From an uncultured candidatus Porisulfidus sp. (lineage in GTDB: Bacteria > Pseudomonadota > Gammaproteobacteria > Poriferisulfidales > Poriferisulfidaceae): DNA of 64,000 nucleotides. The translations under genes and the position numbers were made by a program. Position 1 is the stretch's first letter. Each line of letters begins with the position of its first letter. Below the pieces are notes generated by a model. The model saw only the letters and a program-made list of their open reading frames with translations, was not told the DNA's origin and did no database searches. This document shows positions 6,655 through 62,247 of the stretch, in pieces. The stretch covers positions 1,683,227-1,747,226 of the forward strand of contig OZ251520.1 in the NCBI GenBank assembly GCA_965242985.1, given 5' to 3'.

Positions 6655-6730
6655 ACAATATTATTTATCAATATATTACATATATTTTTTTACTGTATTG
6701 AGCAATTTTGCTCAATATGGTAAAATCACT
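6655..6730. promoter_or_regulatory. Copy 2 of the repeat with perfect 18-bp palindrome TTGAGCAATTTTGCTCAA overlapping the promoter/start of the ATPase gene
   Basis: Perfect inverted repeat 8-2-8 immediately upstream of ORF 6698/6734; AT-rich context. Confidence 0.45.
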
Positions 6731-19049: not shown

Positions 19050-20237
19050 TCATCCTCGCAGATTGGAGAGCAAGTTCGCGCTGATGGTAAACGTCGAATG
19101 TATTTCCCGCTTATTGTCAGCGTAAACCCCCATCTGCTTTTTCCAGTATAGCACTGCCAGACTGGCATTCAGCGCGTTCAGCTCCACTGTTTGAATATTG
19201 GCGTCATACTCGCCGCGCTCAGCTTCGCCCTCAGTCTGCACTCGCTGCCAAGCCATCGCACGGCTCCCTTCTCTGCTTCCAGTAACTCGCAGGATGCCGC
19301 TCAGTTTCCCGTCGACCTTGTCCAGTCCCATGCCGACATCCACGAACGGAATTCCCTTCCCCTCCAAGTACAGGAAAAGATCTTTCTTCACTCTTGGAAC
19401 GTCAACTGCAATAAACACGAAATCCAGAGCGCCTAATTCCGCCAGTGCGGCGCGGTCCGCTTTTTTGCCGTGGCCGAAAACACCGGCCCGATACGCACCG
19501 TAGCGACGCGCATACATTTTCGCTTTATTCTCCCGCCGCCTCAAGTCATTCAAGCTCCATGCACCCGGCGCACGGAAAACATTGTGTTGGAGAAACTCGT
19601 CGTGATCAAACAGATGAATCTCTTTCACCCGCGTCTTGCTAATAAAATCCAAAATGTACGAACCGCTGCCGCCGAGGCCGACGATCGCAATCCGTTGCCC
19701 GCGAACTCGGTTGCTGACCTCCGTAATGCCTGCGCGTCCCGATGCGGTTTCCGTATAGAGAAACGGATCATCCGGGTCATTCGTATCCGGCCGCAAAACG
19801 ATGCGCTTGTCTCTCCATCGGCAGTCTGGATCCAGAATTCTCACCTCACGACTGATAATTTCTGCATAGCGGCTCATCTTCTCGAAGTAATCCTGATATT
19901 TCCCGGTTTCACGCGGTTTGGCAGAAAACCGGTGCTGCGCTTTCAGCCCTGGCTCCAGTTCGACTTCTTCGGACTGATTCCGGATCGCATCGATCGGTTC
20001 GCCATTCGCCCGACACGGGTAATCTCCCTGAAAATATGCCGTATGGTCGCTCGGGCTGACCGTCCGCTCGCCCGATAAATCAAGAACCGACATCAGCTTG
20101 CCCGTCTTCACCATGCGTTCGCCATCAACGTACGGAACGCCATGCAACACCAGATGGCTGCCCAGGACTTCGATATCAAATCCTGCGTCAGCCAACTTCT
20201 GCAGATCTTCGCTACGACTGATCAGTTCGCTGGACAT
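19050..20237 (-). CDS. ThiF/E1-like activating enzyme (IAIVGLGGSGS Rossmann) with ~180-aa N-terminal extension, possibly an E2-like (6E) domain
   Basis: Canonical E1 nucleotide-binding motif; overlaps upstream multiubiquitin gene by 26 nt. Confidence 0.65.
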   Translation of the reverse strand: MSSELISRSEDLQKLADAGFDIEVLGSHLVLHGVPYVDGERMVKTGKLMSVLDLSGERTVSPSDHTAYFQGDYPCRANGEPIDAIRNQSEEVELEPGLKAQHRFSAKPRETGKYQDYFEKMSRYAEIISREVRILDPDCRWRDKRIVLRPDTNDPDDPFLYTETASGRAGITEVSNRVRGQRIAIVGLGGSGSYILDFISKTRVKEIHLFDHDEFLQHNVFRAPGAWSLNDLRRRENKAKMYARRYGAYRAGVFGHGKKADRAALAELGALDFVFIAVDVPRVKKDLFLYLEGKGIPFVDVGMGLDKVDGKLSGILRVTGSREGSRAMAWQRVQTEGEAERGEYDANIQTVELNALNASLAVLYWKKQMGVYADNKREIHSTFTISANLLSNLRG

Positions 20238-28079: not shown

Positions 28080-29468
28080 TCATGGCCTATCCCCTAACTG
28101 GCTAGATGCCGCACTGGCATAGCCGAGATTAGTTTTTCGGAAGTCTTTCTGAGATAGTTCCGATGATCGGTGCTCGATCGCCAACAGATCTAGGTCTATA
28201 AACTCTCGTGTCCGCCCATCATGCCGGACAACAAGCAATTCGGATAGCACCAAACACGCCGCCACCACCCCCACAAAGGGTGCCCCAACCGCCTTGCCCG
28301 CAAGTTGCGCAATTCCGCAATCATCAAGCGTCCCATTTTCAACCAAGCGCCGATATGCCGGGCGGTCAGTGTCCCCCCCGCCGGCTTCAGTTGTTTTCCA
28401 AATTTCCCGAGCGGGACGCGTTCCGGGAAGAACATGCAGCCGCATGCTCTGGAAATCGCGAGGACCCCGTCCCAACCCCGCCTCAACCACCATGTCGAAG
28501 CCGACTTGGTCGAGTGCTCTGCGGGCTATAGCGTTGTCCACCCCGCATAGGGCAACACCTGGTTCGTCGTCCCGCCGCCGCCAGCCGCTGGCGAACTGCC
28601 GCTCGCATATCCTCGTTCGGAAGCCGCGCCGCTCCGCCCAAGCAGCCATAGCGCGGGTTTTCTTCCTTCCCACCATCCCGGCATCACTCAAGACCGAGGT
28701 GCTCTCCGTAGACCCGGTGATATCGTCAGTATCCTGCAGCATCAGGAACAGTTTGGCTGAGTCGGCATAGGGCAACAACCCGAGGCCCCACAGATAGGCT
28801 TGCCCGAGATGACCTAGGCCAATCAGCCACAGGCGGTCGGGCAGCCAAGCCAACTCCGGCTCGCCACCCTCTTTCAGCCAATCAACCTCTTTTGACGGGT
28901 TCCAAAGCGACAATCCAACCGGACGCTTTCCGGCAGGCGGACACTCGCCACGGACATATAGAAACGCCTCATTGATGGCGAGCCCTGCTGCCAGCATCGC
29001 CGCGAGGATCATCGGTGGGCCCGATTCCGCTTGTACTTCCGAATGCGCCGGCACAATCCCGCCGCGCCAGCCTTCCGCAACAGTCCGAATACGGAAGCCC
29101 GGCCGCCTCTCGCGGGGGCCGCCACTGATGAAGATGCAGGGAGTATCCGGGTCGGCGGAGCCGATTGCTCCGCCGAGCTCTGCAATGGCCTCGCCAAGGG
29201 TGTGACCCAGAGGCAGCGGCACAGCCTTTTTTACATCAGCGGGACATTCGACGGACACTCCGCCCAAGAATGACCGATGTCCGAGGGCGACAGCCGTTAG
29301 CAGAGCCGCTTGATTTTGCGGGTCATGAGTGTCTTTCGGGTCGATGCAGACTGCGAGACGGTACTGCTGGAAACTTTCTTCGGCCTGCTCGACACTTTCG
29401 GCAGAACCATCATCAAGCGCGAGCTTCATCAGACGATGCAGATCTTCAGGAAGCGAATCTTGTTCCAT
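28080..29468 (-). CDS. ThiF/E1-like protein (LWLIGLGHLGQAY Rossmann; ALCGVDN active-site region)
   Basis: E1 motifs; last gene of the Ubl-E2-JAB-E1 operon. Confidence 0.6.
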   Translation of the reverse strand: MEQDSLPEDLHRLMKLALDDGSAESVEQAEESFQQYRLAVCIDPKDTHDPQNQAALLTAVALGHRSFLGGVSVECPADVKKAVPLPLGHTLGEAIAELGGAIGSADPDTPCIFISGGPRERRPGFRIRTVAEGWRGGIVPAHSEVQAESGPPMILAAMLAAGLAINEAFLYVRGECPPAGKRPVGLSLWNPSKEVDWLKEGGEPELAWLPDRLWLIGLGHLGQAYLWGLGLLPYADSAKLFLMLQDTDDITGSTESTSVLSDAGMVGRKKTRAMAAWAERRGFRTRICERQFASGWRRRDDEPGVALCGVDNAIARRALDQVGFDMVVEAGLGRGPRDFQSMRLHVLPGTRPAREIWKTTEAGGGDTDRPAYRRLVENGTLDDCGIAQLAGKAVGAPFVGVVAACLVLSELLVVRHDGRTREFIDLDLLAIEHRSSELSQKDFRKTNLGYASAASSQLGDRP

Positions 29469-31019: not shown

Positions 31020-34000
31020 TCAAGGAAGACGCAGAGATCCAGCAGGAAGCACTCCGCAAATGAAGAAGTGCGGGCAACGAGGACAGACCACGTCGTCGGG
31101 GTTGGGCGGAAACACCCCACTAGCCACATGGGTAGCCAAGGCTTGTAGTGTGTTACGGCGATTGTCTAATTTCTTGTCGGTCAATGACACATCTTCGGAA
31201 GTTTCATCTGTCAAATGCAAAGCCTGCACTTTCGCCGTATCACCGAATTTGGCCTTGGCTGCCATCAGGTACAGCGCGTATTCCAAGCGATCGTACTCAG
31301 TTAACCGCTTTTTCCCGGTCCGCACGTGCCGGAGGACTCCCGCACCATCAGGCAGTTCGAAAACCTCGCTCGGCTCCACCCAGACCTGCACGCCCAATAA
31401 ATCGATTTCTATCGGGTTGGATGGCAAAAATCGCAAGTCCTCTCCGCTCCTCACAGCAGTCTTGATAAGCTGTGAAGCAATATCTCGGTACTCCGCCGCA
31501 TACGCGTGGTCAGTCGGTCCGCGCCGCTGCCAGATTTCCTCGAATTTTTTCTCGGCTGCATCCAAAAGCGGATTGGCTCGGCAACGCTCTCTCTTCAACC
31601 AGTGCAGAAATTCATGCACGCAATCGTGGGTCTGCGTGAACGCCGTCGTCTTCCGGGCTCGCTCTAGGCCAAGAACGTGCGTATAGAAAAAACGCCGGGG
31701 GCATTTTTCATAGTCGATCAAGTGTTTGCCCGTCAGATCCCAGCCGTCAGAAAACGTCACATCGACCGATGTCAAGGATTGATCGTCTGGAAGCAACAAA
31801 ATTTCAGGGCCATCCACGCGGTCGGCATAGCTTGGAAGCAGCCACCTGATGAAAGACGATTCTGAGTACTTTCTCCCACCTAGTCGCATTTGTGCAAGAT
31901 ACAGATGCAGGCGCACTCTGGCGCGCGACAGCGCCACAAAGAACAGGCACTGCTCTTCATGCCGGTGAGATTCTTGAGCGAAATCAGGCTGTTGCTCCGC
32001 CCCCTCAATCATCCCGGCAGGCGGCGGACAGCGCGAACCTCTGTAGCTTCCGGGCAGGCTGCCCTTCGTCAAACCCGGAATATGCACGGCCTGAAACTCG
32101 AGCCCTTTGCTAGCATGGATTGTCATTACGCGCGCTGCGTCCATGTGCAGAGCCACCGCGGGAACCTGCCGCAGGTCTCGGTCCTCCCTCAACAGAACCA
32201 GCCGCCGGATTCGTTCCAGCATGTTCCGGATGGCCGAACCACTAGACACCGGCCCCGGCGAGCGGATGAAATTCAGGAATTGCCAAACCGCGACTGCGCG
32301 CAAACGGCCCGCAACCGAATGTTCCTCTGCCATCCGACGGACAAGATCGGTCCGATCCAGAAGATATTCCGACAGCATGTTCCACGGCGTGGAGTCACCG
32401 GAAACTCCAGCGAAATCCCGCGCCAACTGCTTGAAAGCCGTCGCGCTTTCTTTCGACAAGTCCGGAAGCGTCGACAGCTCCGGAAGAATATCGATCGCTG
32501 GCCGGCCATCTTGACGAATGTACTGGATTGCCGAATGCACATCCTGCAGAGGCACTCCGTATCGCGGCATCGCACAGATACGAATCAAGTCATCGCCGGG
32601 ACGGTCTACTAAGAAACTCATCAAAGCCAGCAGGTCGCGCACCTCGCTCCGTTCAAACAGGCTTCCTAAATGAAGCGCCGGGATGTCACGCTTCTCCAAC
32701 GCCTCTGCTATCTCAGACACCCGACGGTTTGATCTGCACAACACTACTTGGTCGCGCAAAGAGATGCCCTCCTGTTCCAATTTGCGAATGTTTGCCGCGA
32801 TTCCCGCCGCCTCCTCTTCCAATGTTCCGTACCAGAGGATTTCCGGTCTGTTCGCACCATCACCACACGCGGCATTCAGAACCAGCGGTTCCATACCCTC
32901 AGACGCATCCATCTTCGACGCGACAGCGACGAAACTATCGACGACCTCCCGAGTGGAGCGGTAGTTGACCTCCAAGCGGCTGACTTCAGCATCCGGATAA
33001 TCCTGTTCGGAGAACTTCGCCATGTTCGCCGAGGAGGCCCCCCGAAAGCGATAGATGGACTGCCGAGCATCCCCAACCACCCAGAGCCTCTTCCCAGCAC
33101 CAGCAACGGCTTTCAGCAGACGCGCACTGGCGCGATTCACATCCTGATATTCGTCCACCAAAACGTGCCGGTGCCGCGAACGCACTTCCTCACGTACCTC
33201 TAGGTTGTTTTCCAGCAATAACGCCGGACGCATGACGAGGTCGCCGAAATCCACAGCTCCCCGCTTATCCAACTCGCTCTCGTATCGAGTGTAGATGTCG
33301 GCGATTTCCGAGCACTTTCCCGCTCTCGCGCGAGCTTCTTCTTCTCCCGCATTGACCAGCATCTGCTCGGCTAGATCACGGTATCGGCCGGAGTCCACAA
33401 GCTCATCCTTAGCGCGGGAAATGGCCTCAAGGACATCGCTCAAAATCAGAACCGGGTCCCAGAGATTCCGATAATGCTTGAGCGGCAATGTCGGCAGGAT
33501 TTCCTCAAGCATCTCGACGGCATCGCCCTTGTCATACAGCGGCGGGTCGGCCGGAAGACCGACTCGATCGTGGTGTCGGCGCAACAGATCCAAGCCGAAC
33601 GAATGGAATGTGCCCGTCCAAATGCGCGATGCGACATCCAAATCGTTCACAGCCAACCGCTCAGTCAGCTCCCCCACCGCACGGTTCGAGAAGGTCAAGA
33701 TCAGGATCGAGGCCGGGTTGACACCTTCATCCAAAAGCGACAGGACCCGCCCTATCAGCGTCTTTGTCTTCCCCGTCCCAGGACCCGCCTGGAGCAGGAA
33801 TGGGGAGCCCCGGTGGGCAACCGCACACTTCTGGGATAAGTCAAGCCGGATCTCGGTTGATTTCGGTGCGGGCGCAAGGTCGGGCGCATCAGGGAGAAGC
33901 AACGAGTCGAAAAGCTGCTGGCGGACAAGATTGATCGGCAGTCCAGTCAATCCTGCAATCTGCAAGGAAGTCTTTTGGTCAGCAACATGCAGGCGGAGGG

Positions 34001-34439
34001 CAACTGATCTCGGTAACAGCAACTCCCGAGCGAAAATATTGGCCTGCAGCTCTCGGCGTTCGCGGGCGCCATAACTCTGCACTCGCTGTTTCCCAACCCA
34101 GGACCTTTCCTCCGGCTGCGACAAATCGCTGAAATCCTCGCTACCGCGTACTGGCGAGGAGGCATGGAGCCGGGCATGGCCGACTTCGTGCGCTATCAAT
34201 TGAGCCTGCTCTACCGGACTCTCCGTGTTTTTGCAGAGTATCGTGCCGCCCTGTTGGTCGAAAAGCGCACGCGCCCCTTTCAGCATGGGGTCGCCCGGCT
34301 CCAAGCGAATGCAATCTAGTCCGAAGTGACGAGCGCCTGCCTCAGCGACCGCTAGAGGATCATACGCATTGACGCCCGCCTTAGCGAGCTCCTTATAGAG
34401 CTCTGCGGCGAACTGGCGACCGTCCTCGAACTTGTCCAA
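31020..34439 (-). CDS. 1139-aa fusion: N-terminal ImmA/IrrE-type M78 metallopeptidase (HEVGH), UvrD/Rep-family SF1 helicase (GPGTGKT, VDEYQD, TIHASKGLEF), C-terminal Cas4/AddB-like PD-(D/E)xK nuclease with Cys cluster (CPRCPHFFIC)
   Basis: All motifs seen in translation; stop of upstream gene overlaps start. Confidence 0.65.
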   Translation of the reverse strand: MDKFEDGRQFAAELYKELAKAGVNAYDPLAVAEAGARHFGLDCIRLEPGDPMLKGARALFDQQGGTILCKNTESPVEQAQLIAHEVGHARLHASSPVRGSEDFSDLSQPEERSWVGKQRVQSYGARERRELQANIFARELLLPRSVALRLHVADQKTSLQIAGLTGLPINLVRQQLFDSLLLPDAPDLAPAPKSTEIRLDLSQKCAVAHRGSPFLLQAGPGTGKTKTLIGRVLSLLDEGVNPASILILTFSNRAVGELTERLAVNDLDVASRIWTGTFHSFGLDLLRRHHDRVGLPADPPLYDKGDAVEMLEEILPTLPLKHYRNLWDPVLILSDVLEAISRAKDELVDSGRYRDLAEQMLVNAGEEEARARAGKCSEIADIYTRYESELDKRGAVDFGDLVMRPALLLENNLEVREEVRSRHRHVLVDEYQDVNRASARLLKAVAGAGKRLWVVGDARQSIYRFRGASSANMAKFSEQDYPDAEVSRLEVNYRSTREVVDSFVAVASKMDASEGMEPLVLNAACGDGANRPEILWYGTLEEEAAGIAANIRKLEQEGISLRDQVVLCRSNRRVSEIAEALEKRDIPALHLGSLFERSEVRDLLALMSFLVDRPGDDLIRICAMPRYGVPLQDVHSAIQYIRQDGRPAIDILPELSTLPDLSKESATAFKQLARDFAGVSGDSTPWNMLSEYLLDRTDLVRRMAEEHSVAGRLRAVAVWQFLNFIRSPGPVSSGSAIRNMLERIRRLVLLREDRDLRQVPAVALHMDAARVMTIHASKGLEFQAVHIPGLTKGSLPGSYRGSRCPPPAGMIEGAEQQPDFAQESHRHEEQCLFFVALSRARVRLHLYLAQMRLGGRKYSESSFIRWLLPSYADRVDGPEILLLPDDQSLTSVDVTFSDGWDLTGKHLIDYEKCPRRFFYTHVLGLERARKTTAFTQTHDCVHEFLHWLKRERCRANPLLDAAEKKFEEIWQRRGPTDHAYAAEYRDIASQLIKTAVRSGEDLRFLPSNPIEIDLLGVQVWVEPSEVFELPDGAGVLRHVRTGKKRLTEYDRLEYALYLMAAKAKFGDTAKVQALHLTDETSEDVSLTDKKLDNRRNTLQALATHVASGVFPPNPDDVVCPRCPHFFICGVLPAGSLRLP

Positions 34440-36231: not shown

Positions 36232-37686
36232 TCAGAACAACCGCCGCAGCCCGACCTCGACCCGGCTCCGCTTGTACCGGAAGCGCTCGGCGTTGGACTT
36301 CCGCTCCTCCCGCACCAGCGCCAGCTCCGGCGTGAAGTCCCCCAGCTCCAGCGTGCGGTTCAGCAGCGACAGGCGCAGGATCCCCAGCCGGTCGCGCCGC
36401 CGAAACGGCCCGTCGATGATGTTCACGTTGTCCGAGTAGCGGTGGTGCCGGTCGTACGACAGGCCGGCGACGAAGCCCCCCGCGCCGAACACCGGCGGCA
36501 GCGCGTAGTCGGCGCCGACCCCGCCCCACCAGCTGTCGTAGCGCTGGCGCGGATCCTCGGTGTGGAAGCGCCGCCAGCCGCCGCGCCCGTGCACCGTCAG
36601 CGCCGGCGTGGCGATGTGCGCGGCGCGGGCGGTGGCGTCCAGCCGCGGCCCGTCGAAGCGCCGCTGGCGGCGGTGGTGCAGCCGCATCCGCTCCAGCGAC
36701 GCCCCCCACCAGGTGCGCTCGCCCAGCCAGCCGTCCGCCTCCAGCCGCAGGCCGCGGCCGCTGCTGTAGGTCTTGCCGCCGTACCAGCTGCGGTTGACCT
36801 TGGCCAGCGCGCTCACGCTGCGCAGCCCGCGGTCGGCGAACTCGAAGCGCGGGCCGGCGTGCAGCGACAGCGTCATGTCGTCGAAGGCGCTCCCGCCGTA
36901 GTCGCGCCGGTACAGCCCGCCGCCGGCGCGCAGCCGCGTCCGCGAGCGCTCGTGCAGCCGGAGGTCCAGCGGCCGCTGGTATTCCGCCGCGGCCGACAGC
37001 AGCAGCCCCACCCCGGAGGTCTGGCGCGCCTCCTTGCTGAGCGTGATGCCCTCGCCCCCGGGCAGCTGGATGCCGGTGGCCACCGTGCGCGCCTCGGTGG
37101 CGGTGTTCACGTTGCTGTCCGGCGCCACCGCCACGTGGAAGCTGCGGCGGATGCGCCGCCGCTCCCGCAGCAGGTGCAGGAACAGCCGGATCTGCCGCAC
37201 CACCGCCGGCGGGTGCTCCTCCGCCAGGATGCGCCGGTAGTGCCGCTCCGAGGCGTCGCAGTCGTCGCCCAGCAGGTGCGCCCACAGGTCCTCGGGCGGG
37301 CGGGCGCAGTCGCCGCGCTGGAACAGCGCGTGCGCCAGGTACAGGTGCGCGTCGGCCCGCGCCGGGCGCCGGCGCTGCACGTGCGCGAACGCCCGCGCCG
37401 CCTCGCCGTACAGGTTCTTGCGCAGCTCCCCGCTCCAGGGCGCGCCGCCCGGGGCCCGCTCCCGCTGCGCGGCCTCGAGCAGCGCCACGCCGAGGCGGAA
37501 AATCGCGTCCAGCCCCTCCGGGCGCTGCGCCAGCTGCTCGCGCAGCACGATCACCATCGCCGCCACCTCCGCCTCGCTCGCGGCGCGCGGCGCGGAGCCG
37601 GCCGGCTCCGCCGCGCCGGCGGCGGCGGCCTGCAGCAAGAGCGCCGCGGCCAAGGCCGCGGCGCCGCGCGTCGGGCGGGCAAGCAT
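36232..37686 (-). CDS. Slam-like outer-membrane protein (signal peptide, TPR-like N-domain, DUF560-like barrel ending RRLF)
   Basis: Start MLARPTRGAAALAAALLLQAAAAG signal peptide; paralog of 3765..5285; adjacent to a lipoprotein gene. Confidence 0.65.
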   Translation of the reverse strand: MLARPTRGAAALAAALLLQAAAAGAAEPAGSAPRAASEAEVAAMVIVLREQLAQRPEGLDAIFRLGVALLEAAQRERAPGGAPWSGELRKNLYGEAARAFAHVQRRRPARADAHLYLAHALFQRGDCARPPEDLWAHLLGDDCDASERHYRRILAEEHPPAVVRQIRLFLHLLRERRRIRRSFHVAVAPDSNVNTATEARTVATGIQLPGGEGITLSKEARQTSGVGLLLSAAAEYQRPLDLRLHERSRTRLRAGGGLYRRDYGGSAFDDMTLSLHAGPRFEFADRGLRSVSALAKVNRSWYGGKTYSSGRGLRLEADGWLGERTWWGASLERMRLHHRRQRRFDGPRLDATARAAHIATPALTVHGRGGWRRFHTEDPRQRYDSWWGGVGADYALPPVFGAGGFVAGLSYDRHHRYSDNVNIIDGPFRRRDRLGILRLSLLNRTLELGDFTPELALVREERKSNAERFRYKRSRVEVGLRRLF

Positions 37687-37781
37687 GGCCGGTCCGCTCC
37701 GCCGGATGCTCCGGGCAGGAAAAAGGGGCCGCCGGCGGCGGCCCCTCTCTCCTTGCGGCCGAACGAGTCGGCGCCGCAGCC

Positions 37782-40457
37782 TCAGTTGCTGTCGGCCGGC
37801 GGGGCCTCCCGCACCGCGCCGAAAGCGCCGAACAGCATCGCGCCTTCCGCGACGCCGTTGTTGCCCGCGCCGCTGGTGCCGGTGCCGACCACCTCGAACG
37901 TGCCGCCGACTTCCTTGTGCGCGGCGTCGCCCGTGCCGTAGAACATGCCGTCGAGCACGGTGCCGGTCAGCTCCGGAGAGTCGCCGGCGGTCATGCCCAC
38001 GTGGCGGAAAGTGCCGGTGTCGGTCAGGGCCATTTCCTCGAACTTGAAGCCGCGCCCGGTGCCGTCGGTGGCGTCGCCTTCGACGCCCAGAGTAGTGACC
38101 GCGGCCCCGTTGTGCGGAGTCACGAAGCTGTCGAACGTCACGTCCACCTCTGTGTCGGCGAAATCGACCTCCACGGTCGCGTCGGCACGCCAGACCTCGG
38201 CCTCGCCGGCCGAGGCGGTGCTCATGGCGAGCGCCTCGCCGTTCCAGGTCGCGGTGCCGGTCCCGGTGGGCGCGGTCCCGCTCGGCACGCCCATCGACGC
38301 CGCGCCGTACAGCGCGTCCTGCTGCCACAGCGTGGGGTTGTCGTCGAAACGGAGCCCGGCCAAGGTGAAGGCTTTCACGTTGGCGGTCGTCGCGGAGATC
38401 TGCGTGACTGCGAACATGCTGTGTTCCATCCAGCCCAGATATCGGACGAAGTTGACTACCGCGCCGCCGCCCTGCTCATGATCGGGAGGGTTAGAGAAAT
38501 CGCCGCCGCTGGCCGCATGAGAATAATCCGTGACATCATTATTGAGCCCCTCCGCGGAGATGTAATAGTTCTCTCTCGTCAGCTGCACGACGCGGTCGGC
38601 CTCGTTGGCTTCGGTGGAGGGGTCGTCGACGGCGGGCGGCGAACTGATATCCATGAAGCCGACATCGTTGTCGGTGAAGCCCGGCGCGATGCCCAGGAAC
38701 GCGAACTCCCCGGCGGGCGCGGTGACGGGCGCGGCCGCGCCGCGCGTGCCCCGGTTCGCCAAGTCGCGGAACGCGGCCAGCGTCGGCTTGATGCTGCGCC
38801 AGAACACCCGTCCCATGCGCTCCGCCAGCGTGTCGCCCTCATCCTGGTATTCCGGGGCGATCGACGTGAACAGCTTGTTCAGCCGGTTGCCGGTGGTCGC
38901 CTGGTACGTGCCGAGGTTGGCGCTTTCGGCGCCGACCGCGACCGTGCTCCGCTCGGGATCCAGCGTGATGCAGTCGTTGTCGCAGCTCTCGAAGTTCTCC
39001 GTCAAGCGGCCCTGCAGGGTCAGCGTGGCGTTCGAGTCCGACGCGCCGACTCCCGTGATGTCGACTTCCGTTTCGTTGACGTTCAACGCGCTCGTTCTCA
39101 TCTTCAGGTACCGGATGCCCATCGTGCGCAGGCCCTCTTGCTCCAGCACGGCCTTGGGCCCGCTGCGCAGGCCGGCAAGCCGGTTGGCGTTGTAACTATG
39201 GCCCCAATGACGGACGGACGAGGAGCCGGCGGTCCCGGCCTCGTACTCTCCCGCAATGTCGGTGGTGACCGAAGCCCGATTCGTATTCGTGCCGCCGATG
39301 TTGTCCGCAATCAAGACTTTGCTTTGCGCGACGACATCCGGATCCGTGCCCTCGTCGTCGCCGTCGGGCATCGTCCGCGAGATGGACGTCCGCGTCAGCG
39401 TCGCGTCGGCCATATACGCCGCCGCGTCGTAGGTGTGCGTGACGGTCATCCCGCCCCCTGCGTCCACCTCCCGGGTGACGCTGGAAACGTCGCCGTCCGC
39501 GTCGTACTTGACCAGCAGATTGCCGGAGGAAACCATCAGCACCTGGGTCCGGACGCCGTCCGCGTTGTAGGAGGTGATCGTCGTAACCGCCTGCGTGCCC
39601 GCGCCCATCGAGTCTTCGCTGTACGAATACCTGGTCACCACCCGGGTCCGGTCGGCGCCCTCGGTGGTGATCACGGTCATCATGGTCACCCGGTGGTGCA
39701 TCGTGTCGTCGTCGGTGTCGTCCGCCGTGCCCTGATTGGCCGTGTGCACCTCGTAGACGTACTCCGTCTTGCTCATCTGGTTGCCGTCCGCGTCGAACTC
39801 GAACACCGTCATCGGATCCGTCGTGAGCATCGCGGCCACCGCATTGTCGCCGGAACCCTGCGGCGGACGCGTGTAGTAGTCGGTCCGCATGCTGGTCATG
39901 TCGGCCCGGGTCAGCACCATCCGCGTGACCATGGAGATGGCCAGCGCGCCGCCCGGGGCGGAGGCGGTGCCCGCCGTCCGCGTGATCGTGCCGGTGCGCA
40001 CCGTCGTGGTGCCGCCCGTGATCGCCACGGTCTCGGTGCCCGCGCCCGTCATGTCGTCCGCGTCGATCATCGCGCCTTCGCCGAACATCACGGTCGTGGT
40101 CGTGTCGCCCATCACCGTCACGATCCGCATCACGTCGGCGATGCTGTACGTGGGATCGGCGTCGGCGTCCGCGCCCGCGGTCTCGGTCACGGTGCCGTGG
40201 TACGTCACCATCCGGGTCACCTCGCCGTCCGTCGTCGTCCGCACGACCAGCGTGCCGGCCGCGCCGCCCATCGCGGTGCAATCGCCGCCCGCGCCGCACA
40301 TGTACATCGAGGTGGACATCACCACCGGCTCGGTCGGCTCCGGCGCCGGGGCCGGCGCCGCCGCGCCGCCGCCGCTGCCGCCGCCGCTGCAGGATGCCAG
40401 CAGGCCGGCCGCCAGCAACGCGGCCGCCGTCTTCAGTTCGGAACGGGAAATGCTCAT
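37782..40457 (-). CDS. Large surface lipoprotein (lipobox LLASC) with C-terminal TbpB/fHbp-like 8-strand barrel; candidate Slam-dependent surface lipoprotein
   Basis: Start MSISRSELKTAAALLAAGLLASC preceded by GAGAGGA; C-terminal GTFEVVG...AMLFGAFGA barrel-like motifs; immediately upstream of the Slam gene. Confidence 0.6.
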   Translation of the reverse strand: MSISRSELKTAAALLAAGLLASCSGGGSGGGAAAPAPAPEPTEPVVMSTSMYMCGAGGDCTAMGGAAGTLVVRTTTDGEVTRMVTYHGTVTETAGADADADPTYSIADVMRIVTVMGDTTTTVMFGEGAMIDADDMTGAGTETVAITGGTTTVRTGTITRTAGTASAPGGALAISMVTRMVLTRADMTSMRTDYYTRPPQGSGDNAVAAMLTTDPMTVFEFDADGNQMSKTEYVYEVHTANQGTADDTDDDTMHHRVTMMTVITTEGADRTRVVTRYSYSEDSMGAGTQAVTTITSYNADGVRTQVLMVSSGNLLVKYDADGDVSSVTREVDAGGGMTVTHTYDAAAYMADATLTRTSISRTMPDGDDEGTDPDVVAQSKVLIADNIGGTNTNRASVTTDIAGEYEAGTAGSSSVRHWGHSYNANRLAGLRSGPKAVLEQEGLRTMGIRYLKMRTSALNVNETEVDITGVGASDSNATLTLQGRLTENFESCDNDCITLDPERSTVAVGAESANLGTYQATTGNRLNKLFTSIAPEYQDEGDTLAERMGRVFWRSIKPTLAAFRDLANRGTRGAAAPVTAPAGEFAFLGIAPGFTDNDVGFMDISSPPAVDDPSTEANEADRVVQLTRENYYISAEGLNNDVTDYSHAASGGDFSNPPDHEQGGGAVVNFVRYLGWMEHSMFAVTQISATTANVKAFTLAGLRFDDNPTLWQQDALYGAASMGVPSGTAPTGTGTATWNGEALAMSTASAGEAEVWRADATVEVDFADTEVDVTFDSFVTPHNGAAVTTLGVEGDATDGTGRGFKFEEMALTDTGTFRHVGMTAGDSPELTGTVLDGMFYGTGDAAHKEVGGTFEVVGTGTSGAGNNGVAEGAMLFGAFGAVREAPPADSN

Positions 40458-40600: not shown

Positions 40601-40629
40601 ATTATAGATGGTGCCGGTCATTTTGTAAA
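40601..40629 (-). promoter_or_regulatory. Near-consensus sigma70 promoter (TTTACA-17-TATAAT) ~145 nt upstream of lipoprotein start
   Basis: Reverse strand reads tctTTTACAaaatgaccggcaccatcTATAATc. Confidence 0.45.
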
Positions 40630-40743
40630 GACAGCCCGCACGGCCCCTCTCGCCCGCCCGGCGCGGGGGGAGGAAAGTCTCTCCCGCCCCGTCGCTGGGA
40701 AATGCGGCTGGCTGTGCGGCGGGAGAGTATACCACAGGGATTC

Positions 40744-40758
40744 GGGGGGGGGGGGGGG
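40744..40758. repeat. 15-nt poly-G (poly-C on lipoprotein strand) homopolymer upstream of lipoprotein promoter
   Basis: Read directly. Confidence 0.9.
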
Positions 40759-40860
40759 CGGAATCCGGCCCCGGATTCCGCGCCCGCCGCCGCCCGTGCC
40801 GGCGCCTGCTCCGCCGCCGCCGCAGGATGCCGGCAGGCCCGCCGCCGGCCCGCGCCGCGC

Positions 40861-41688
40861 CTACTCCGGCACCGCGAACGTCAGCCGCCGCGCCAGGCGC
40901 AGCAGCTCGCGCAGGCTCCCCACCGCCGCGTGCGGGCGGTGCGGGTGGCGCGCGGTGCCGGGGAACATCCGGTCCAGCCGCTCCCGCTCCCAGCCGGCGC
41001 CGTTGTAGAACACCGCCGTCGCCCCGGCGCGCCGGGCGGCGGCCACGTCGGCGGCGCTGTCGCCCACGCACCAGCAGTGCGGGTCCGCCGGCAGGCCGAG
41101 CGCCGCGGCCGCGGCCCGCACCGGCGCCGGGTCCGGCTTGCGCCGCGGCGCGTCGTCGCCGCACACCAGCGCGTCGAAGCAGCCGCGCAGGTCGGCCGCC
41201 GGCGAGGCCCGCGCCAGCGCCGCCAGCTCGCGCCGCACGAACGCCCGGTTGCGGTTGCTGAGCAGGCCCAGCTTCGCGCCCATCGCCCGCAGCGCCGCGA
41301 GCGCGCGCGGCGCGTCCGGCTCCAGCAGCTCGACCGGCCCCGGCGGCGCCGCCCGGTAGGCGGCGTCGAAGGCGCGGTGGGCGAGGTCCTTCGCTTCGCC
41401 GTCGTCGCCGAACAGCAGCTCGAACAGGTCGGTGCGCGAGATCTTGCGCGCCGCCCGCGCCCGCGGGTGCAGCCGGCCGTGCGCGCGCACGTGGCGCAGC
41501 AGCTTGGCCTCCTCCAGGGTGCGGCTGGCGGCGACCGGCGCCAGCCGCCCGCGCAGGCCGAGCTCCGCCAGCCGCGGCAGCACCTCGTCGACCGCGCGGT
41601 ACATCGCGTCGTGGGTGTCGACCAGCGTCGCGTGCCAGTCGAACAGGATCGCGCGCGGCGCGGCCTGCGGGTGCTCAGCCGCCGCCAT
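40861..41688 (-). CDS. HAD-superfamily hydrolase (phosphatase-like)
   Basis: ILFDWHATLVDT motif I and VGDSAADVAAARRAG motif IV. Confidence 0.55.
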   Translation of the reverse strand: MAAAEHPQAAPRAILFDWHATLVDTHDAMYRAVDEVLPRLAELGLRGRLAPVAASRTLEEAKLLRHVRAHGRLHPRARAARKISRTDLFELLFGDDGEAKDLAHRAFDAAYRAAPPGPVELLEPDAPRALAALRAMGAKLGLLSNRNRAFVRRELAALARASPAADLRGCFDALVCGDDAPRRKPDPAPVRAAAAALGLPADPHCWCVGDSAADVAAARRAGATAVFYNGAGWERERLDRMFPGTARHPHRPHAAVGSLRELLRLARRLTFAVPE

Positions 41689-42691
41689 CGAGCGCCGCGC
41701 TCTCCAGCTCCAGCCGCAGGTCGGCGCGGCACAGCGCGCTGTGCACGAAGCGCCGCGGCGCGGCCGCGCCCAGCGCGCGGTCGAGCGCCGCGCGCGCCGC
41801 CGGCAGGTCGGCCGGGTCCGCCAGGTAGACCTTCTGGAACGGCAGGTCCTGCGCCCGCTCGGGGCCCGCGAGCCCGGCCAGGCGCGCCTGCGCCACCACC
41901 GCCGCGTGGTTGCGCAGCGCCTCGCGCGCCTGCGCCGCCGCGTCGCCCGGGTGGCGGGTGGCGCAGCCGACGATGCTGGCGGTGCCGGACAGGAACAGCG
42001 CGCGCGACGCGCCGTCGGCGTGCCAGGCGCCGCGGCTGAACGACGGCCCGTGCGGGCCGAGCGCGGCCGGGTAGTCCGGCGGCGGCGTCTGCCGGGGGTT
42101 GTCCAGCGCGCGCGGCGCGCGCGCCGCGGTCAGGGCCAGCAGCGCGAGGCCCGGCGCGGCGCTGCCGGTGGTGGTCGCCGCCGGCAGCGGCGCCGCGAGC
42201 GCGGCCTCGTCCTCGGTCATCGCCCGCCGCCGCCCGGCGCAGAACGCCTGGTAGCGCCCGTCCCGGGCCAGCGCCGGCAGGTGGCACCACACCCGCAGCA
42301 GCCGCGGGCAGCCCTGCGCGCGCGCCAGCGCGAGCAGCTCCGCGCAGGCCCGGTAGCTGGCCGCCCGCAGGTCGTCCGCTTCGTCGAACACCGCCCAAGC
42401 GAACAGCCGCCCGCCGCAGCGCACCCAGCGGAACGCCCCGGCCGCGCCGCGCCCGCCGATGCGGTCGCTGGACCAGACCTCCGCGAACGGCTTGCCGTCG
42501 AGCGGCGGGAGCGCCAGCTCCAGCCCAGCATCGGTCGCCCGCTGCCGCGCGGCGCCGTAGGCGACGCGCAGCAGCACCTCCTCCGCCGGCGGCGCGACGG
42601 AGTCCGGGAGGAACGCGAGGCGCAGGGAACGGGGGCCGGTGTGCATGGCGTCGGGCTGCCGGCGCGCCCGCTGGGATGCGCGGCGGCGCAT
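41675..42691 (-). CDS. Hypothetical enzyme (possibly FkbO/Hyg5-chorismatase/RidA-like), 5' end duplicated at 45341..45540
   Basis: 338-aa high-GC ORF; N-terminal 55 aa has a diverged second copy 2.7 kb away. Confidence 0.3.
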   Translation of the reverse strand: MRRRASQRARRQPDAMHTGPRSLRLAFLPDSVAPPAEEVLLRVAYGAARQRATDAGLELALPPLDGKPFAEVWSSDRIGGRGAAGAFRWVRCGGRLFAWAVFDEADDLRAASYRACAELLALARAQGCPRLLRVWCHLPALARDGRYQAFCAGRRRAMTEDEAALAAPLPAATTTGSAAPGLALLALTAARAPRALDNPRQTPPPDYPAALGPHGPSFSRGAWHADGASRALFLSGTASIVGCATRHPGDAAAQAREALRNHAAVVAQARLAGLAGPERAQDLPFQKVYLADPADLPAARAALDRALGAAAPRRFVHSALCRADLRLELESAALDGGG

Positions 42692-45340: not shown

Positions 45341-45540
45341 ATCTCCGCCGCAAAACCCGCTGCCGAGCGGCGGGAGCGCCAGCTCCAGCCCGGCATCGGT
45401 CGCCTGCTGCCGCGCGCCGCCGTAGGCGACGTGCAGCAGCGTCTCGTCCGCCGGCGGCGCGGGGGAGCCCGGGAGGAAAGTGAGGCGCAGGGAGCGGGGG
45501 CCGGTGTGCACGGTTCGGATTTCCTGTGGAACGAGGTCCA
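45341..45540. repeat. ~150-bp segment ~90% identical to the 5' end of gene 41675..42691 (42481..42660)
   Basis: gagcggcgggagcgccagctccagccc...ggcgcagggaNcgggggccggtgtgca shared. Confidence 0.6.
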
Positions 45541-45789
45541 CGGAGCTCGCGGAAAGCAACGTGTCCGCCCGCGGTACGCGGCAACACACTATAATATGTC
45601 AAAGTAATGCGGGACAACCTCCGAGAGGTTCCCGAAAACGCGCCGAGAGCGTGCAACTTTACGAAGAGGGATCGAGGACTTCACTAGGCTTCCGGTCAAT
45701 TGGCTTCTGCGGACCGGGTTGACCTCCCCGTTGAAACCTCATCAAACGCTGACTTGCCCGTACCCGTAAATCCTGCACGAAGTACTGCC

Positions 45790-48700
45790 ATGCCTAGAAA
45801 ACAACCACCGGTAGAGCACTTGACTCCACATTTCAACTTGCTCCAAGAAGAGTACTTGTTAATACAGGCATGGAAAAAGACCGTATCGTATATACGCCAA
45901 TATAATTGGTACGTGGATACCCTGCAACTCGATAGAGCTGCAATTAACCTGCGCTCGTTCATTTCGCGAATTCAGCGGCGCATACAAAAGCCAGAGTGGC
46001 AAAATCATAGGTTGCGGATCGTGCTGGCTCCCAAAAGCCAAACTTGGGAGACATCATCCAAATCTGCTCTTCCTTGGCATCCCGCAAATAAATCTGAACC
46101 AGACGAACCTACAATGCGCCTGCGGCCGCTCGCACACGTGGATATTGAAGAACAAGTTGTGGCAACCGCGCTGATGCTGTGTCTCGCTGATCGAGTCGAA
46201 ACAAAGCAAGGAGATCCGCGAGACGAAATCCAGGACGAGATCTCGAGGAAAAAAGTACTTTCATATGGCAACCGCCTGTTTTGTGACCGCAGCGACAACG
46301 AATTGCACCATCGATGGGGGACAACCAAATTATATCGAGCCTACTACCAAGACTATAGGAAGTTTCTTGCTCGTCCAGATGCTGTTGTGAAACCTCATGG
46401 GAAACAAAAGAATTTCCGGAATCGAAATATCTTCGTCGTTCATTCTGACCTTAAAGAGTTTTACGATAGGGTGCGACCTCGCCATCTTGCTGATGCCCTG
46501 CTACACCTTAAAGAAAATGCCGATGAGCAGCCATTCTTTGACTTTGCGAAGCGCGTTCTGAACTGGACTTGGAACTCCCGCGACAAAAAACAAAGCACTT
46601 TCTATGCCACTCAGGCGGGAATTGAAGACTTCGACCATGTGGCCCTCCCGCAAGGCCTAGTCTCCGCCGGCTTTTTTGCAAACATCATGCTTCTTGAGTT
46701 CGACAAAAAACTGCAAGAAACAATCGGGAAAAATATCACAAAAGATAGCAGCCTTCGTTTAGAAGATGCTTGCAGGTACGTTGACGACCTGCGAATAACC
46801 ATGACCAGTCCCCGCACAGATAATTCTGTAGATGTGGCGGATGTAAAAGACAAAACCTTGGCATGGCTACAACAACTGTTGATAGACACCGCGCCCGAAC
46901 TGGAGATCTCTATAGATAAGACTGAGATCCGCCAAGTAGATCAAGCCGATAATCCTTTGATCAATCAAAGCGCCAAGATGAATCGCATTCAAAAGGCGGT
47001 ATCTGGTGGATTTGATGCGGTCGGCGGAACCGAAATACTGGACTTGATCCAAGGCTTGATGCGGTCCCAAGAAGCATTGCATCGAAAAGAATGCGAAACC
47101 ATTTGGCCATTTTCTCCACTGACCGATGTCCAGAAAGGAACCGTCGCTAGATTCACAGCGGGCCGCTACCGGACCACATACAGATCCGTCAGGCCCCTGC
47201 TTGACGATACACAGCAGTCTAAGGAAATCAATGATGCCGACTTTCCTACAAAATCAGGTGCTGACTATCTTGGTCTCATCACACAACGCGAGCTTGATGA
47301 AGACATGCGTGTTTTTGCGCTTGGCCTTATTGAGCGATGGGTGGCCGATCCATCGAACGTAAGGTTGCTACGCATTGGGCTGGATCTCCGACCTGATGCC
47401 AAAATACTGCAGAAAATACTGGACATGATTCGCCCGCTGATCCATAAGCGAGGTCCGCAACGTTCCGTTGCATTGTATTGCCTAGCGGAACTGTTTCAGG
47501 CTGGAGCCACAGAAACTGGATGGGTAGAAGATAATGAATCTCTACCTGATGACGTCAAAGTCAAGCAATATCGGAAAATTCTGCGGGAGGAAGCAACTAG
47601 GCTAGTAGAACCAAAGACTGCTCTTATTCCTTGGTATCTCCGGCAACAAGCACTGCTATACCTCGCCGTCTGTTCTCCTGAAGAAGCGGTGCCAATCCCC
47701 CGGACAACTCAGAATGAAACCAAGCACTACTACAGAATGATCGAGTTTTTGCAGTCCGGAAATATTAATCAACCCATATCGGTGTCGGAGTTTGCGAACT
47801 TAGCGGTACTGGCCCATCGTTCATTCCCAAAAAGAAGAACAGTTACGGCCAAAGCAATTCGCCAACAACTAACACCCGCTCGAGCCGAGGCTATCGCTGC
47901 GCGAGATCTTTCGTTCGCTTACGACCTTGTCACACAGGAAACCCGCCCTTTTAATGTGACGCATCTGTCTACACACATCAAAGAAGATCTCTGTCTTGAA
48001 GAAAGTACAATTCCCGAGAATGGAATGCAGAGTCTTGCAAGTATCGTGTTGGAGAATAAACATGACCTAAACGTCTTTCAGAACGAACTGGCGGTGTTGC
48101 GCTTCGCGGAAAAATTCCTTGAGCAACTGTCGCAAATGTCTCCTCGACCTCTAGCTATCACCCCTAGGAACGTGTGGGTTGAAGTTAAGGCCCCGCACGC
48201 GCAAATTGCCAAAATCAGGCGAGTGAAAATCTTTCCCGACGTAACACCCCACTCCAACTCTCTCTATAGCCCTCCCAACTGGTGTGCTGAAAATGATCGT
48301 TGGCGTTTCAATCTTGGATTCCTAATCCGCTTTATACTCACGGGGCAACCGGATTTTACTCGTCGCGTATTTCCATCAGTTCACTGGAAAGAAGATACCT
48401 CCACATACCGGAAAGCGGAAAGCCACTGGTATCAGCGACTTCACGGATTATACAACGGTCAACAAGCATTCGGCGGAGACTGGGTCCCCGTGACGGACTG
48501 GGTGGAACAGTTTGTGCTGGCCCTCCTGCGTTGGCCTGGCTGTTACTTGCCCAAGACTTTTGAATTTGCCAGCAATGGGCTTGAGCCAACTAGGATGGCA
48601 ATTAAAACAAGAATCGGAGTGCTTAACAATGCTATGGGCCATGTCTCTGGAACACAACTACTCCCAGTTAACGCGCAACCTAAGCGGCTTAGCACAAAAA

Positions 48701-49599
48701 ACACCCTGCGAATCTGCGTTGTGCAGACCGCCATCCCAAAAGTCCGAGATTTCGAGAAGTGCGGTCTCTCACTATCCACGCCTTTGATCCGCAAAAAGCA
48801 TCGCAGACATCTTTCCGCTGCCCTCACCGCTGTCAAAAGCATTATGCATCTCCGAAACACTCACATGGAATGTGGCGGAGAATTGGATTGGCTGATTTTG
48901 CCCGAACTTGCGGTTCATCCGAAAGATGTAACGACTCACCTGATGCCATTTGCACGTGCCTATAAAGCGTTAATACTCGCAGGATTGACATATGAAAAAC
49001 TGCCACGCGGCCCATACCAAAACTCCGCGATATGGATTCTCCCCGAATGGTCCGAATCTTCCGAACTGCGGATTCGAACACGCAGGCAGGGGAAACAGCA
49101 CCTTTCTCCGGTCGAGAAGAAATTTAATGACGGCCGGGAACGTGTCCAAGGTTTTCGGCCCTGCCAATGGCTAGTGCGTTACCCTTGGTCAGCAGAGGAA
49201 AACAGCCAGCCTCTGATGCTGACCGGTTCCATTTGTTACGACGCAACCGATTTGGAAATCATCACCGCCCTCCGGAATCAATCGGATGTCTTGGCTATAC
49301 CATCCCTGAATCCGGATGTGCGAACGTTTGACCAGATGGCTCAAGCCCTGCATTACCACATGTTCCAGCTCGTTATCGTAGCCAATAACGGCCAGTACGG
49401 AGGAAGCAACGCATATTGGCCCGCCAAGGGAATCAAGAAGCAAATTTTTCATGTGCACGGGCAGCCGCAAGCCTCCATCACTTTTTTTGAAATCGACAAT
49501 ATCGAAGATTTTCAAAAGCGAACTCTCCCAAGCGATGAGCGCCAGAAATATCCTCTAGCAGGATCAAGATGGAAATATCCTCCAGCAGGCTTAGGCTAG
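45790..49599 (+). CDS. Reverse transcriptase fused to C-terminal nitrilase/CN-hydrolase domain (DRT type 1 / UG1-like defense RT)
   Basis: RT motifs (FVVHSDLKEFYDRV; ALPQGLVSAGFFANIML; YVDD) and nitrilase-like LRICVVQT...ILPE...GSICYD; ~1270 aa. Confidence 0.65.
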   Translation: MPRKQPPVEHLTPHFNLLQEEYLLIQAWKKTVSYIRQYNWYVDTLQLDRAAINLRSFISRIQRRIQKPEWQNHRLRIVLAPKSQTWETSSKSALPWHPANKSEPDEPTMRLRPLAHVDIEEQVVATALMLCLADRVETKQGDPRDEIQDEISRKKVLSYGNRLFCDRSDNELHHRWGTTKLYRAYYQDYRKFLARPDAVVKPHGKQKNFRNRNIFVVHSDLKEFYDRVRPRHLADALLHLKENADEQPFFDFAKRVLNWTWNSRDKKQSTFYATQAGIEDFDHVALPQGLVSAGFFANIMLLEFDKKLQETIGKNITKDSSLRLEDACRYVDDLRITMTSPRTDNSVDVADVKDKTLAWLQQLLIDTAPELEISIDKTEIRQVDQADNPLINQSAKMNRIQKAVSGGFDAVGGTEILDLIQGLMRSQEALHRKECETIWPFSPLTDVQKGTVARFTAGRYRTTYRSVRPLLDDTQQSKEINDADFPTKSGADYLGLITQRELDEDMRVFALGLIERWVADPSNVRLLRIGLDLRPDAKILQKILDMIRPLIHKRGPQRSVALYCLAELFQAGATETGWVEDNESLPDDVKVKQYRKILREEATRLVEPKTALIPWYLRQQALLYLAVCSPEEAVPIPRTTQNETKHYYRMIEFLQSGNINQPISVSEFANLAVLAHRSFPKRRTVTAKAIRQQLTPARAEAIAARDLSFAYDLVTQETRPFNVTHLSTHIKEDLCLEESTIPENGMQSLASIVLENKHDLNVFQNELAVLRFAEKFLEQLSQMSPRPLAITPRNVWVEVKAPHAQIAKIRRVKIFPDVTPHSNSLYSPPNWCAENDRWRFNLGFLIRFILTGQPDFTRRVFPSVHWKEDTSTYRKAESHWYQRLHGLYNGQQAFGGDWVPVTDWVEQFVLALLRWPGCYLPKTFEFASNGLEPTRMAIKTRIGVLNNAMGHVSGTQLLPVNAQPKRLSTKNTLRICVVQTAIPKVRDFEKCGLSLSTPLIRKKHRRHLSAALTAVKSIMHLRNTHMECGGELDWLILPELAVHPKDVTTHLMPFARAYKALILAGLTYEKLPRGPYQNSAIWILPEWSESSELRIRTRRQGKQHLSPVEKKFNDGRERVQGFRPCQWLVRYPWSAEENSQPLMLTGSICYDATDLEIITALRNQSDVLAIPSLNPDVRTFDQMAQALHYHMFQLVIVANNGQYGGSNAYWPAKGIKKQIFHVHGQPQASITFFEIDNIEDFQKRTLPSDERQKYPLAGSRWKYPPAGLG

Positions 49600-59898: not shown

Positions 59899-59927
59899 AC
59901 ACATACAATCTTTGACAGGGGAACCTC

Positions 59928-62236: not shown

Positions 62237-62247
62237 GAGATGTCGCC

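Follow-up and report, generated by a model that had tools for sequence, protein, structure and literature searches.

A candidate Slam-lipoprotein pair with a long, rapidly changing lipoprotein in an uncultured gammaproteobacterium

In a 64-kb window of DNA (the whole stretch analysed, 64,000 nucleotides; contig OZ251520.1, positions 1,683,227 to 1,747,226) from an uncultured candidatus Porisulfidus sp. of the Gammaproteobacteria, a gene for a long lipoprotein is followed by a gene for a Slam outer-membrane protein. The locus is quite likely a two-gene Slam (type XI secretion) module with the lipoprotein as its cargo, handled by Sec, lipidation, the Lol pathway and Slam flipping via the barrel of the lipoprotein. 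An initial annotation of the window had read the pair in this way, as a Slam next to a lipoprotein of the surface-exposed type, and this reading is supported by a match to PF04575, a barrel model, fold matches to Slam cargo only and a sequence profile. The arrangement given there, a lipoprotein of about 890 aa upstream and Slam downstream on the same strand with a 95-bp gap, was found in full on the minus strand (Table 1).

The Slam gene and the lipoprotein gene

The product of the downstream gene matched the Pfam family PF04575 (SlipAM/DUF560) over profile positions 6-288 of 288, with E = 1.7e-19 and 70.9 bits (cutoff 22). Its N-terminus carries a signal peptide and a putative helical TPR-like domain that precedes the DUF560 barrel. 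Residues 88-126 gave weak matches below cutoff to TPR_16 (E = 0.016) and TPR_19 (E = 0.064). The homologous stretch of the second Slam of the window matches TPR_Slam at 6e-5, and relatives at 45-47% identity carry TPR Pfam matches. In total 22 relatives were found, nearly all with PF04575. The sequence search gave no match to any solved structure, and the scan of species-representative genomes yielded no close relative. Judged from these sequence matches, the gene is a real Slam (DUF560, type XI secretion).

The lipoprotein gene starts with ATG, and GAGAGGA is found eight bases before it. The signal peptide is MSISRSELKTAAALLAAGLLAS, followed by the cysteine, and shows a charged n-region and then a hydrophobic h-region. 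The lipobox LLASC reported in the initial annotation is present, with the cysteine at position 23, and conforms to the consensus [LVI][ASTVI][GAS]C (PMC7857515). Lipobox and signal peptide II are kept in the allele P0001.

The pair was compared in three loci, namely the window, L001 and L002; every allele is from a metagenome contig, and ENA sample ERZ26050812 is the source of two. Allele P0001 has an open reading frame (ORF) of 890 aa that is 95% identical to the window lipoprotein. In the third allele (L002), the homologous N-terminal coding sequence runs to the contig edge with one frameshift, on a contig labelled 5x. The G+C content at third codon positions (GC3) of the window gene is 0.87-0.96 in each of the four quarters of the ORF. 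The 891-aa ORF is a single genuine gene, since its GC3 is of the coding type throughout, P0001 keeps it and L002 carries its N-terminal coding part.

The C-terminal handle and barrel

A full-length model of the lipoprotein was built with AlphaFold2 (AF2) from a 60-sequence alignment. The model was confident only for the last ~270 residues, with a predicted local distance difference test score (pLDDT) of 80-96, which form a four-stranded sheet and then eight barrel strands. The handle strands, at model residues 603-613, 644-654, 658-667 and 693-701, stand directly before the barrel with pLDDT mostly above 75. When the model was compared with the PDB by Foldseek, only Slam cargo proteins occupied the first 21 places, namely NHBA, TbpB, the hemophores HphA and hemophilin, fHbp and LbpB. 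The best match was the C-domain of NHBA (target-normalised TM-score 0.70, E = 9e-6).

An exhaustive phmmer search with the whole lipoprotein, covering 1.84 billion representative proteins, returned one close relative and four remote ones. The remote relatives align only to residues ~657-891 and are lipoproteins of ~300 aa or, in one case, a two-lobed protein of 636 aa. All four match PF01298 (TbpB_B_D), the 636-aa protein being the only one to reach the Pfam cutoff. A profile (A1) made from such C-terminal domains was run against 177,635 PDB sequences and matched almost only TbpB (best E = 3e-5), NHBA and LbpB; just one match, to a member of the phage tail sheath family (E = 2.1), lay outside this group. 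The same profile recovered 59 further small lipoproteins of 164-387 aa (median 314), about half of which carry PF01298, and a lipobox was present in 41 of them. The window lipoprotein is 2.3 times as long as the longest of these 59 detected members of the barrel subfamily.

The TbpB/fHbp-like C-terminal barrel anticipated in the initial annotation is in agreement with these results: structure prediction of the C-terminus gave the eight strands, the fold matches were cargo proteins, and the profile linked the domain to TbpB, NHBA and LbpB. The two barrel motifs named there, GTFEVVG and FGAFGA, occupy residues 852-858 and 874-879. The barrel profile matches the lipoprotein once, at the C-terminus, and matches in the N-terminal part stay at or below 0.2 bits. 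Since there is only one barrel by this profile, a bilobed architecture like that of TbpB was rejected.

The N-terminal body and the middle region

From residue 46 to about residue 620, the phmmer search found no sequence relatives beyond the two alleles. The whole lipoprotein had no match in Pfam, NCBIfam, PHROGs, PADLOC or PDB, and a profile made from all three alleles found nothing in the PDB. In the full-length AF2 model the first ~600 residues have pLDDT below 50, and a separate model of the body, run on residues 46-445 with three sequences, averaged a pLDDT of 33 and is unusable. The low-confidence models consist of strings of beta hairpins, mostly beta strands.

The body (residues 46-440) is rich in Thr, Asp, Gly, Ala, Val and Met; over residues 46-250, Thr reaches 20%, Asp 10% and Met 8.3%, with 0.5% Lys and 2.4% Pro. 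Motifs such as SYNADG and KYDADG account for a single RHS_repeat (PF05593) match at residues ~318-346 (E = 0.07, 14 bits, cutoff 22). Membership of the RHS/YD-repeat group was discarded, as this match is alone and below threshold and internal repeats do not exceed those of shuffled controls. An origin from repeats or simple sequence was likewise rejected: no off-diagonal self-match goes beyond those of shuffled controls and the body has no tandem repeats. A Met-rich metal-binding domain was rejected as the main explanation of the body because the Met positions are not kept between alleles (for example M63T, M124A, M130T, M253V and M259Q). Conservation between alleles is highest in a block of the middle region, residues 487-546, with 93-97% identity.

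The initial annotation had described the lipoprotein as far larger than known substrates. This does not hold, since the PDB contains TbpB and LbpB chains of up to 717-722 aa and 891 aa is only about 1.25 times as large; a lipoprotein in another locus, L089, has 1358 aa. The length of the protein alone is not exceptional.

Allelic variation and evolutionary rates

The order of cargo, 95-bp gap and Slam was found in 3/3 loci, with different flanking genes, and the 95-nt spacer is almost identical in sequence across all of them. Between the window and L002, the cargo is 74% identical at the amino-acid level and Slam 98.8%. The ratio of nonsynonymous to synonymous substitution rates (dN/dS), estimated with the simple Nei-Gojobori method from three alleles with extreme GC3, was 1.08-1.14 for the cargo and 0.16-0.24 for Slam. 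The N-terminal body (residues 46-440) showed values of 1.15-1.6, and segments of the cargo reach 1.4-1.6. Identity between cargo alleles changes along the protein in a mosaic manner, with values between 46% and 100% for stretches of 30 residues. The ratio of nonsynonymous to synonymous changes differed between cargo and Slam (Fisher p = 1.6e-6 for the window and L002, and 2.4e-4 for the window and L001), and amino-acid change in the body is ~20 times faster than in the adjacent Slam. This contrast fits a surface-exposed protein under diversifying selection, contested antigenically or as a receptor, beside a constrained machine.

Clustered multi-nucleotide substitutions were observed between the lipoprotein alleles, and a reverse transcriptase gene lies nearby. 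A diversity-generating retroelement was rejected, given that the reverse transcriptase is the DRT1a defence enzyme (PADLOC E = 0) and that no template repeat of the variable region was found within 15 kb.

Expression signals

The near-consensus promoter upstream of the lipoprotein gene (Table 1) is kept in L001, and shuffled sequence averages 0.2 such sites. The predicted folding energy of the 95-nt spacer between the two genes is -62.5 kcal/mol (z = -3.8), a value that was not reached by any of 200 shuffled sequences. It contains a hairpin with a 9-bp G+C stem (37725-37745) and then a run of five T (37720-37724). This hairpin with its U5 tract is similar to an intrinsic terminator, or to an attenuator, placed between the two genes. 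Searches against Rfam found nothing in the 5' leader or in the intergenic region.

Further upstream, ~270 nt before the ATG of the lipoprotein, a run of 15 C was observed at 40744-40758 (minus-strand reading); the L001 allele has 12 C. A perfect hairpin at 40760-40779 (GGAATCCGGGGCCGGATTCC) lies on one side of the run and an extended -10-like element, TGnTATACT (TGGTATACT, 40726-40734), on the other. The poly-C tract could belong to a promoter that is phase-variable in the manner known from Neisseria, or its length difference could be a homopolymer error of assemblies with low coverage.

Table 1. Coordinates of the features in the 64-kb window.
Feature	Position	Strand	Description	Basis
Slam / type XI secretion outer-membrane protein	36232-37686	minus	484 aa, C-terminal ...RRLF	PF04575, relatives
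DUF560 barrel of Slam	36235-37137	minus	residues 184-484	PF04575
Intergenic region between lipoprotein and Slam	37687-37781	minus	95 nt	fold and allele comparison
Lipoprotein gene	37782-40457	minus	complete, 891 aa and stop codon	
C-terminal handle and eight-stranded TbpB-type barrel of lipoprotein	37785-38594	minus	residues ~622-891	AF2, Foldseek, profile
Barrel strands	37809-38255	minus	residues ~735-883	AF2
Middle region of lipoprotein	38595-39137	minus	residues 441-621	no detectable relatives, no confident model
Orphan N-terminal body of lipoprotein	39138-40322	minus	residues 46-440; most variable region between alleles	no relatives; model mostly beta hairpins
Gly/Ala/Pro-rich tether	40323-40388	minus	residues 24-45, after the lipidated Cys: SGGGSGGGAAAPAPAPEPTEPV	composition
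Signal peptide II and lipobox	40389-40457	minus	residues 1-23, LLAS/C23, Ser at +2	read from sequence
Near-consensus sigma-70-type promoter	40601-40629	minus	TTTACA-17-TATAAT, ~145 nt upstream of lipoprotein ATG	11/12 consensus positions
Examples from the core and island mosaic	45700-49599; 28080-29468; 31020-34439; 15994-17280; 19050-20237; 58765-63777	plus; minus; minus; minus; minus; plus		

Proposed pathway

The pathway is drawn by analogy with the Neisseria system (PMC9090332, PMC7857515). The lipoprotein would be exported by Sec, lipidated on Cys23 and freed of its signal peptide, and the Lol pathway would take it to the outer membrane, as the residue at +2 is Ser. The adjacent Slam would then recognise the C-terminal eight-stranded barrel and pass the lipoprotein unfolded to the cell surface, where the lipid would anchor it. 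Translocation of unfolded cargo through Slam, aided by Skp, has been reconstituted in vitro (PMC9090332). Handle and barrel would thus act as the export tag, and the ~600-residue N-terminal body would be the displayed working part. The lipoprotein gene is predicted to be driven by its own strong promoter. The intergenic hairpin with its U-tract would probably be a partial terminator that keeps Slam transcription below that of the cargo and the cargo-to-Slam ratio high.

Our best guess is that the N-terminal body serves as a variable coat or adhesin on the cell surface, directed at an antagonist or a partner such as host cells, phages or grazers. A coat or adhesin is preferred to a nutrient co-receptor because the body changes ~20 times faster than Slam and no TonB-dependent receptor is encoded nearby.

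Alternative explanations

Several observations weigh against the assignment of the pair as a Slam module with a surface-displayed cargo. Surface exposure and Slam dependence of the lipoprotein are properties that we infer. The isolated C-terminal domain spans positions 4-126 of the 126 of PF01298, though at 16 bits (E = 0.017) it falls below the cutoff of 26, and the full-length lipoprotein gave no match to this family; the link to TbpB_B_D is made through an intermediate family and a fold prediction. Several relatives of the Slam have no adjacent cargo, and three short relatives of the barrel domain have no adjacent Slam, so the barrel alone does not imply a neighbouring Slam. The dN/dS values are limited by the number of alleles, the simple method and the extreme GC3, and the neighbouring FkbO-like gene also shows a dN/dS of 0.8. 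The body has no usable model, and its function is therefore a guess. Finally, the scan for consensus terminators did not flag the intergenic hairpin.

An ordinary periplasm-facing outer-membrane lipoprotein with a coincidental Slam neighbour, or a long ORF that is an annotation artefact, would dispense with display altogether, and the many Slams without adjacent cargo, together with the many barrel-family members without adjacent Slam (three loci examined), could be seen in this light. This alternative is very improbable: cargo and Slam are separated by an identical 95-bp spacer in all three alleles, the fold matches of the barrel are restricted to Slam cargo, two alleles have an intact ORF of 890-891 aa with coding-type GC3 throughout, and the lipoprotein evolves at a rate that contrasts with that of Slam.

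If the lipoprotein is displayed by Slam, it could serve as a nutrient-capture co-receptor or tethered hemophore, similar to TbpB, LbpB, HpuA or HphA, that hands metal, heme or a comparable ligand to a TonB-dependent transporter encoded elsewhere. TbpB, LbpB and HphA are among the best fold matches, DUF560 genes are linked to TonB and TonB-dependent receptors (PMC8406197), and the body is Met-rich over residues 46-250. However, the 64-kb window, L001 and L002 yielded neither a TonB gene nor a gene as large as a TonB-dependent receptor, the window ORFs of that size being genes identified as something else. The lipoprotein has one barrel instead of two lobes, and the Met positions listed above vary between alleles, which argues against fixed metal ligands. 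Rapid change of the body would also be unusual for a conserved ligand site, although TbpB is variable as well. A nutrient co-receptor is therefore considered unlikely. A role in phage exclusion or defence, with the lipoprotein as a surface shield or decoy that masks receptors, would account for the position of the pair between defence islands but appears somewhat less likely still. The pair has a UvrD/GajB-like nuclease and BilD to one side and SocA and DRT1a to the other, the L001 and L002 alleles neighbour SIR2-HerA and ThsB, and fast amino-acid evolution would fit an arms race. On the other hand, neither the lipoprotein nor Slam matches PADLOC or PHROGs, the pair has ~75% GC and a GC3 of ~0.9 like core genes and not the 50-58% GC of the islands, and it keeps its place while the surrounding islands change.

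Comparison with known systems

To our knowledge, work on Slam systems has centred almost exclusively on animal pathogens, whose cargo has up to ~720 residues and binds host iron carriers or complement regulators. The initial annotation had also counted a host outside Neisseria, Moraxella and Pasteurellaceae as a novelty, which was overstated, since Slam/DUF560 proteins are already described from all proteobacterial classes (PMC5449769, PMC8406197). Slam homologues occur in all proteobacterial clades and in free-living species, and about half adjoin lipoproteins (PMC5449769); Slam/DUF560 proteins are likewise on record from free-living bacteria and from clusters associated with water and soil (PMC5449769, PMC8406197). 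The DUF560 family has been generalised as the type XI secretion system, with 851 predicted cargo pairs catalogued (PMC8406197). Predicted cargo commonly consists of a variable N-terminal region and then an eight-stranded barrel (PMC5449769), the N-terminus being proposed as effector and the C-terminus as secretion-targeting part (PMC8406197). Neighbourhood analyses tie DUF560 genes to TonB and TonB-dependent receptors (PMC8406197).

The window Slam shares the DUF560 barrel, the signal peptide and the C-terminal Phe with known Slams (N. meningitidis Slam1 and Slam2, Xenorhabdus NilB and HrpB), and its N-terminus may likewise be a helical TPR-like region. Like about half of the Slams in PMC5449769, it adjoins a lipoprotein with a C-terminal eight-stranded barrel. 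It differs from the characterised Slams in being only distantly related to them, in its uncultured, very high-GC gammaproteobacterial host and in having no TonB or TonB-dependent-receptor genes nearby; the window also holds a second Slam and a Slam fragment.

Among the cargo proteins, the closest parallel in fold is NHBA (GNA2132, N. meningitidis), the best fold match of the window barrel. The two proteins are built alike: behind the lipobox comes a long N-terminal region that resists modelling, and a short beta element leads into one eight-stranded barrel at the C-terminus (PMC7857515). The N-terminal region of NHBA is described as disordered and Arg-rich and binds heparin, whereas the window body is longer, acidic, Thr-rich and mostly beta in the model, and there is no sequence similarity outside the barrel. 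With TbpB and LbpB, the window lipoprotein shares the lipobox, a Gly-rich tether, the handle-plus-barrel module, allelic hypervariability, the conserved motif G-x-FYG...E-x-GG-x-F...G-A-FGA-x-R and, presumably, Slam dependence. Those proteins, in contrast, have two handle-barrel lobes and TonB-dependent receptors, TbpA and LbpA, where the window lipoprotein has one barrel, and its first ~600 mature residues are unrelated to TbpB. In sequence, the C-terminal ~230 residues are closest to the small environmental TbpB_B_D lipoproteins (59 members, e.g. P0006 and P0038 from a Rhodospirillales metagenome-assembled genome), at 25-37% identity and with the common pattern GW(L/M)xHS...FYGxxHxEVGG...GAFGAxR. 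The long body and a 16-residue insertion before the last barrel strand set the window lipoprotein apart from this family, whose three examined loci have no adjacent Slam.

The locus fits the published Slam framework fully and leaves the known principle of the system unchanged. What is particular to it is the single barrel from a subfamily whose 59 other detected members have 164-387 aa, the orphan body of ~600 residues, the rate contrast with Slam and the host lineage. Cargo and Slam form a clean and conserved pair here, in an uncultured gammaproteobacterium with a small genome and very high GC. If surface display were confirmed, known Slam cargo would cover a wider range of sizes and sequences, and the locus would provide both a natural test of how long an unfolded substrate Slam can thread and a candidate surface protein for symbiont-host or symbiont-phage interaction. 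More speculatively, and with considerable doubt, the lipoprotein could stand for a class of Slam cargo that has not been described so far, very long and hypervariable and found in uncultured gammaproteobacteria that may live with sponges, with an orphan beta-rich body under positive selection at the host or phage interface and with the same Slam clade exporting cargo of ~350 to more than 1350 residues. Such a range within one clade would mean a Slam translocon without a practical upper size limit. In the same speculative reading, the poly-C tract might also make expression of the lipoprotein phase-variable.

Other Slam genes

A second complete Slam gene was found in the window at 3765-5285 (minus strand). 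Its 506-aa product is 44% identical to the paired Slam and matches PF04575 (E = 7e-21) as well as TPR_Slam, as given above; no lipoprotein gene is adjacent. It is followed by a gamma-carbonic-anhydrase-like gene and then metY, and the same order was seen beside the Slam P0095 on a circular contig of 1.879 Mb (L087). Divergent from the second Slam, a 200-aa ORF at 5524-6126 (plus strand) contains only the C-terminal barrel part (E = 1e-9 over profile positions 106-288) and borders on a low-GC island. Visual comparison places it nearer to the paired Slam than to the second one, and it is probably a 5'-truncated remnant.

In another metagenome, upstream of a Slam that is 46% identical to the window Slam, the 1358-aa lipoprotein of L089 (1758-5834; lipobox LALGAC) carries at least six near-identical tandem repeats of ~95 residues, Ala/Asp/Lys-rich and alpha-helical. 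Its C-terminus shows a barrel motif, though weakly (hhalign E = 7e-4). In L088 (3804-5834), the sister contig from the same sample, the corresponding gene call has 676 aa and is preceded by a separate 267-aa ORF. The difference in length could be attributed to variation in repeat number or to the assembly. Another relative of the window Slam follows a 351-aa lipoprotein.

Genomic context

The window is a mosaic in which core genes of ~75% GC (GC3 0.9-1.0) alternate with defence-gene islands of lower GC (47-58%). The core genes include metY, purF, an nspC-like gene, an FkbO-like gene, a HAD hydrolase gene and the lipoprotein-Slam pair. Island genes include DRT1a, BilD (E = 5e-165), an AbiEii-type ATPase, SocA, DUF6791-ThiF, a 1139-aa IrrE-UvrD-PD-(D/E)XK fusion (the UvrD/GajB-like nuclease) and PAPS-reductase/AAA_23/DndE-HerA (Dnd-like) genes. 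The islands are numerous for a genome of ~1.9 Mb; the contig that holds the window measures 1,877,398 bp. The PurF protein shares 81% identity with its counterpart in an uncultured Gammaproteobacteria metagenome-assembled genome (RHO3_bin_14) and about 63% with all others, and the suggested sponge association is a guess based on this isolate name. The lipoprotein-Slam pair is not island cargo, because its composition is that of the core genes and its position stays the same where the islands differ; it looks like a core anchor beside insertion hotspots.

Between the FkbO-like gene and the lipoprotein promoter lies a gene for a HAD-family hydrolase (40861-41688, minus strand; GC3 0.99). It is absent from the otherwise collinear L001, where tblastn found FkbO at 90% identity and no HAD gene; as its GC3 is core-like, the absence represents a strain-specific presence/absence difference. 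A functional link between the lipoprotein and the HAD hydrolase was rejected on account of this absence.

A 155-nt direct repeat (42494-42648 and 45359-45513, 90% identity) brackets an insert of ~2.7 kb with lower GC, which carries a 346-aa ORF without family match and a gene with a SocA/Panacea antitoxin domain. The insert looks like an island that entered the FkbO-like gene at its 5' end and duplicated the target on integration. In another low-GC island, a 1370-aa ORF (7969-12081, plus strand) without Pfam match follows a DUF4143 ATPase gene (6698-7972) and may encode an uncharacterised defence protein.

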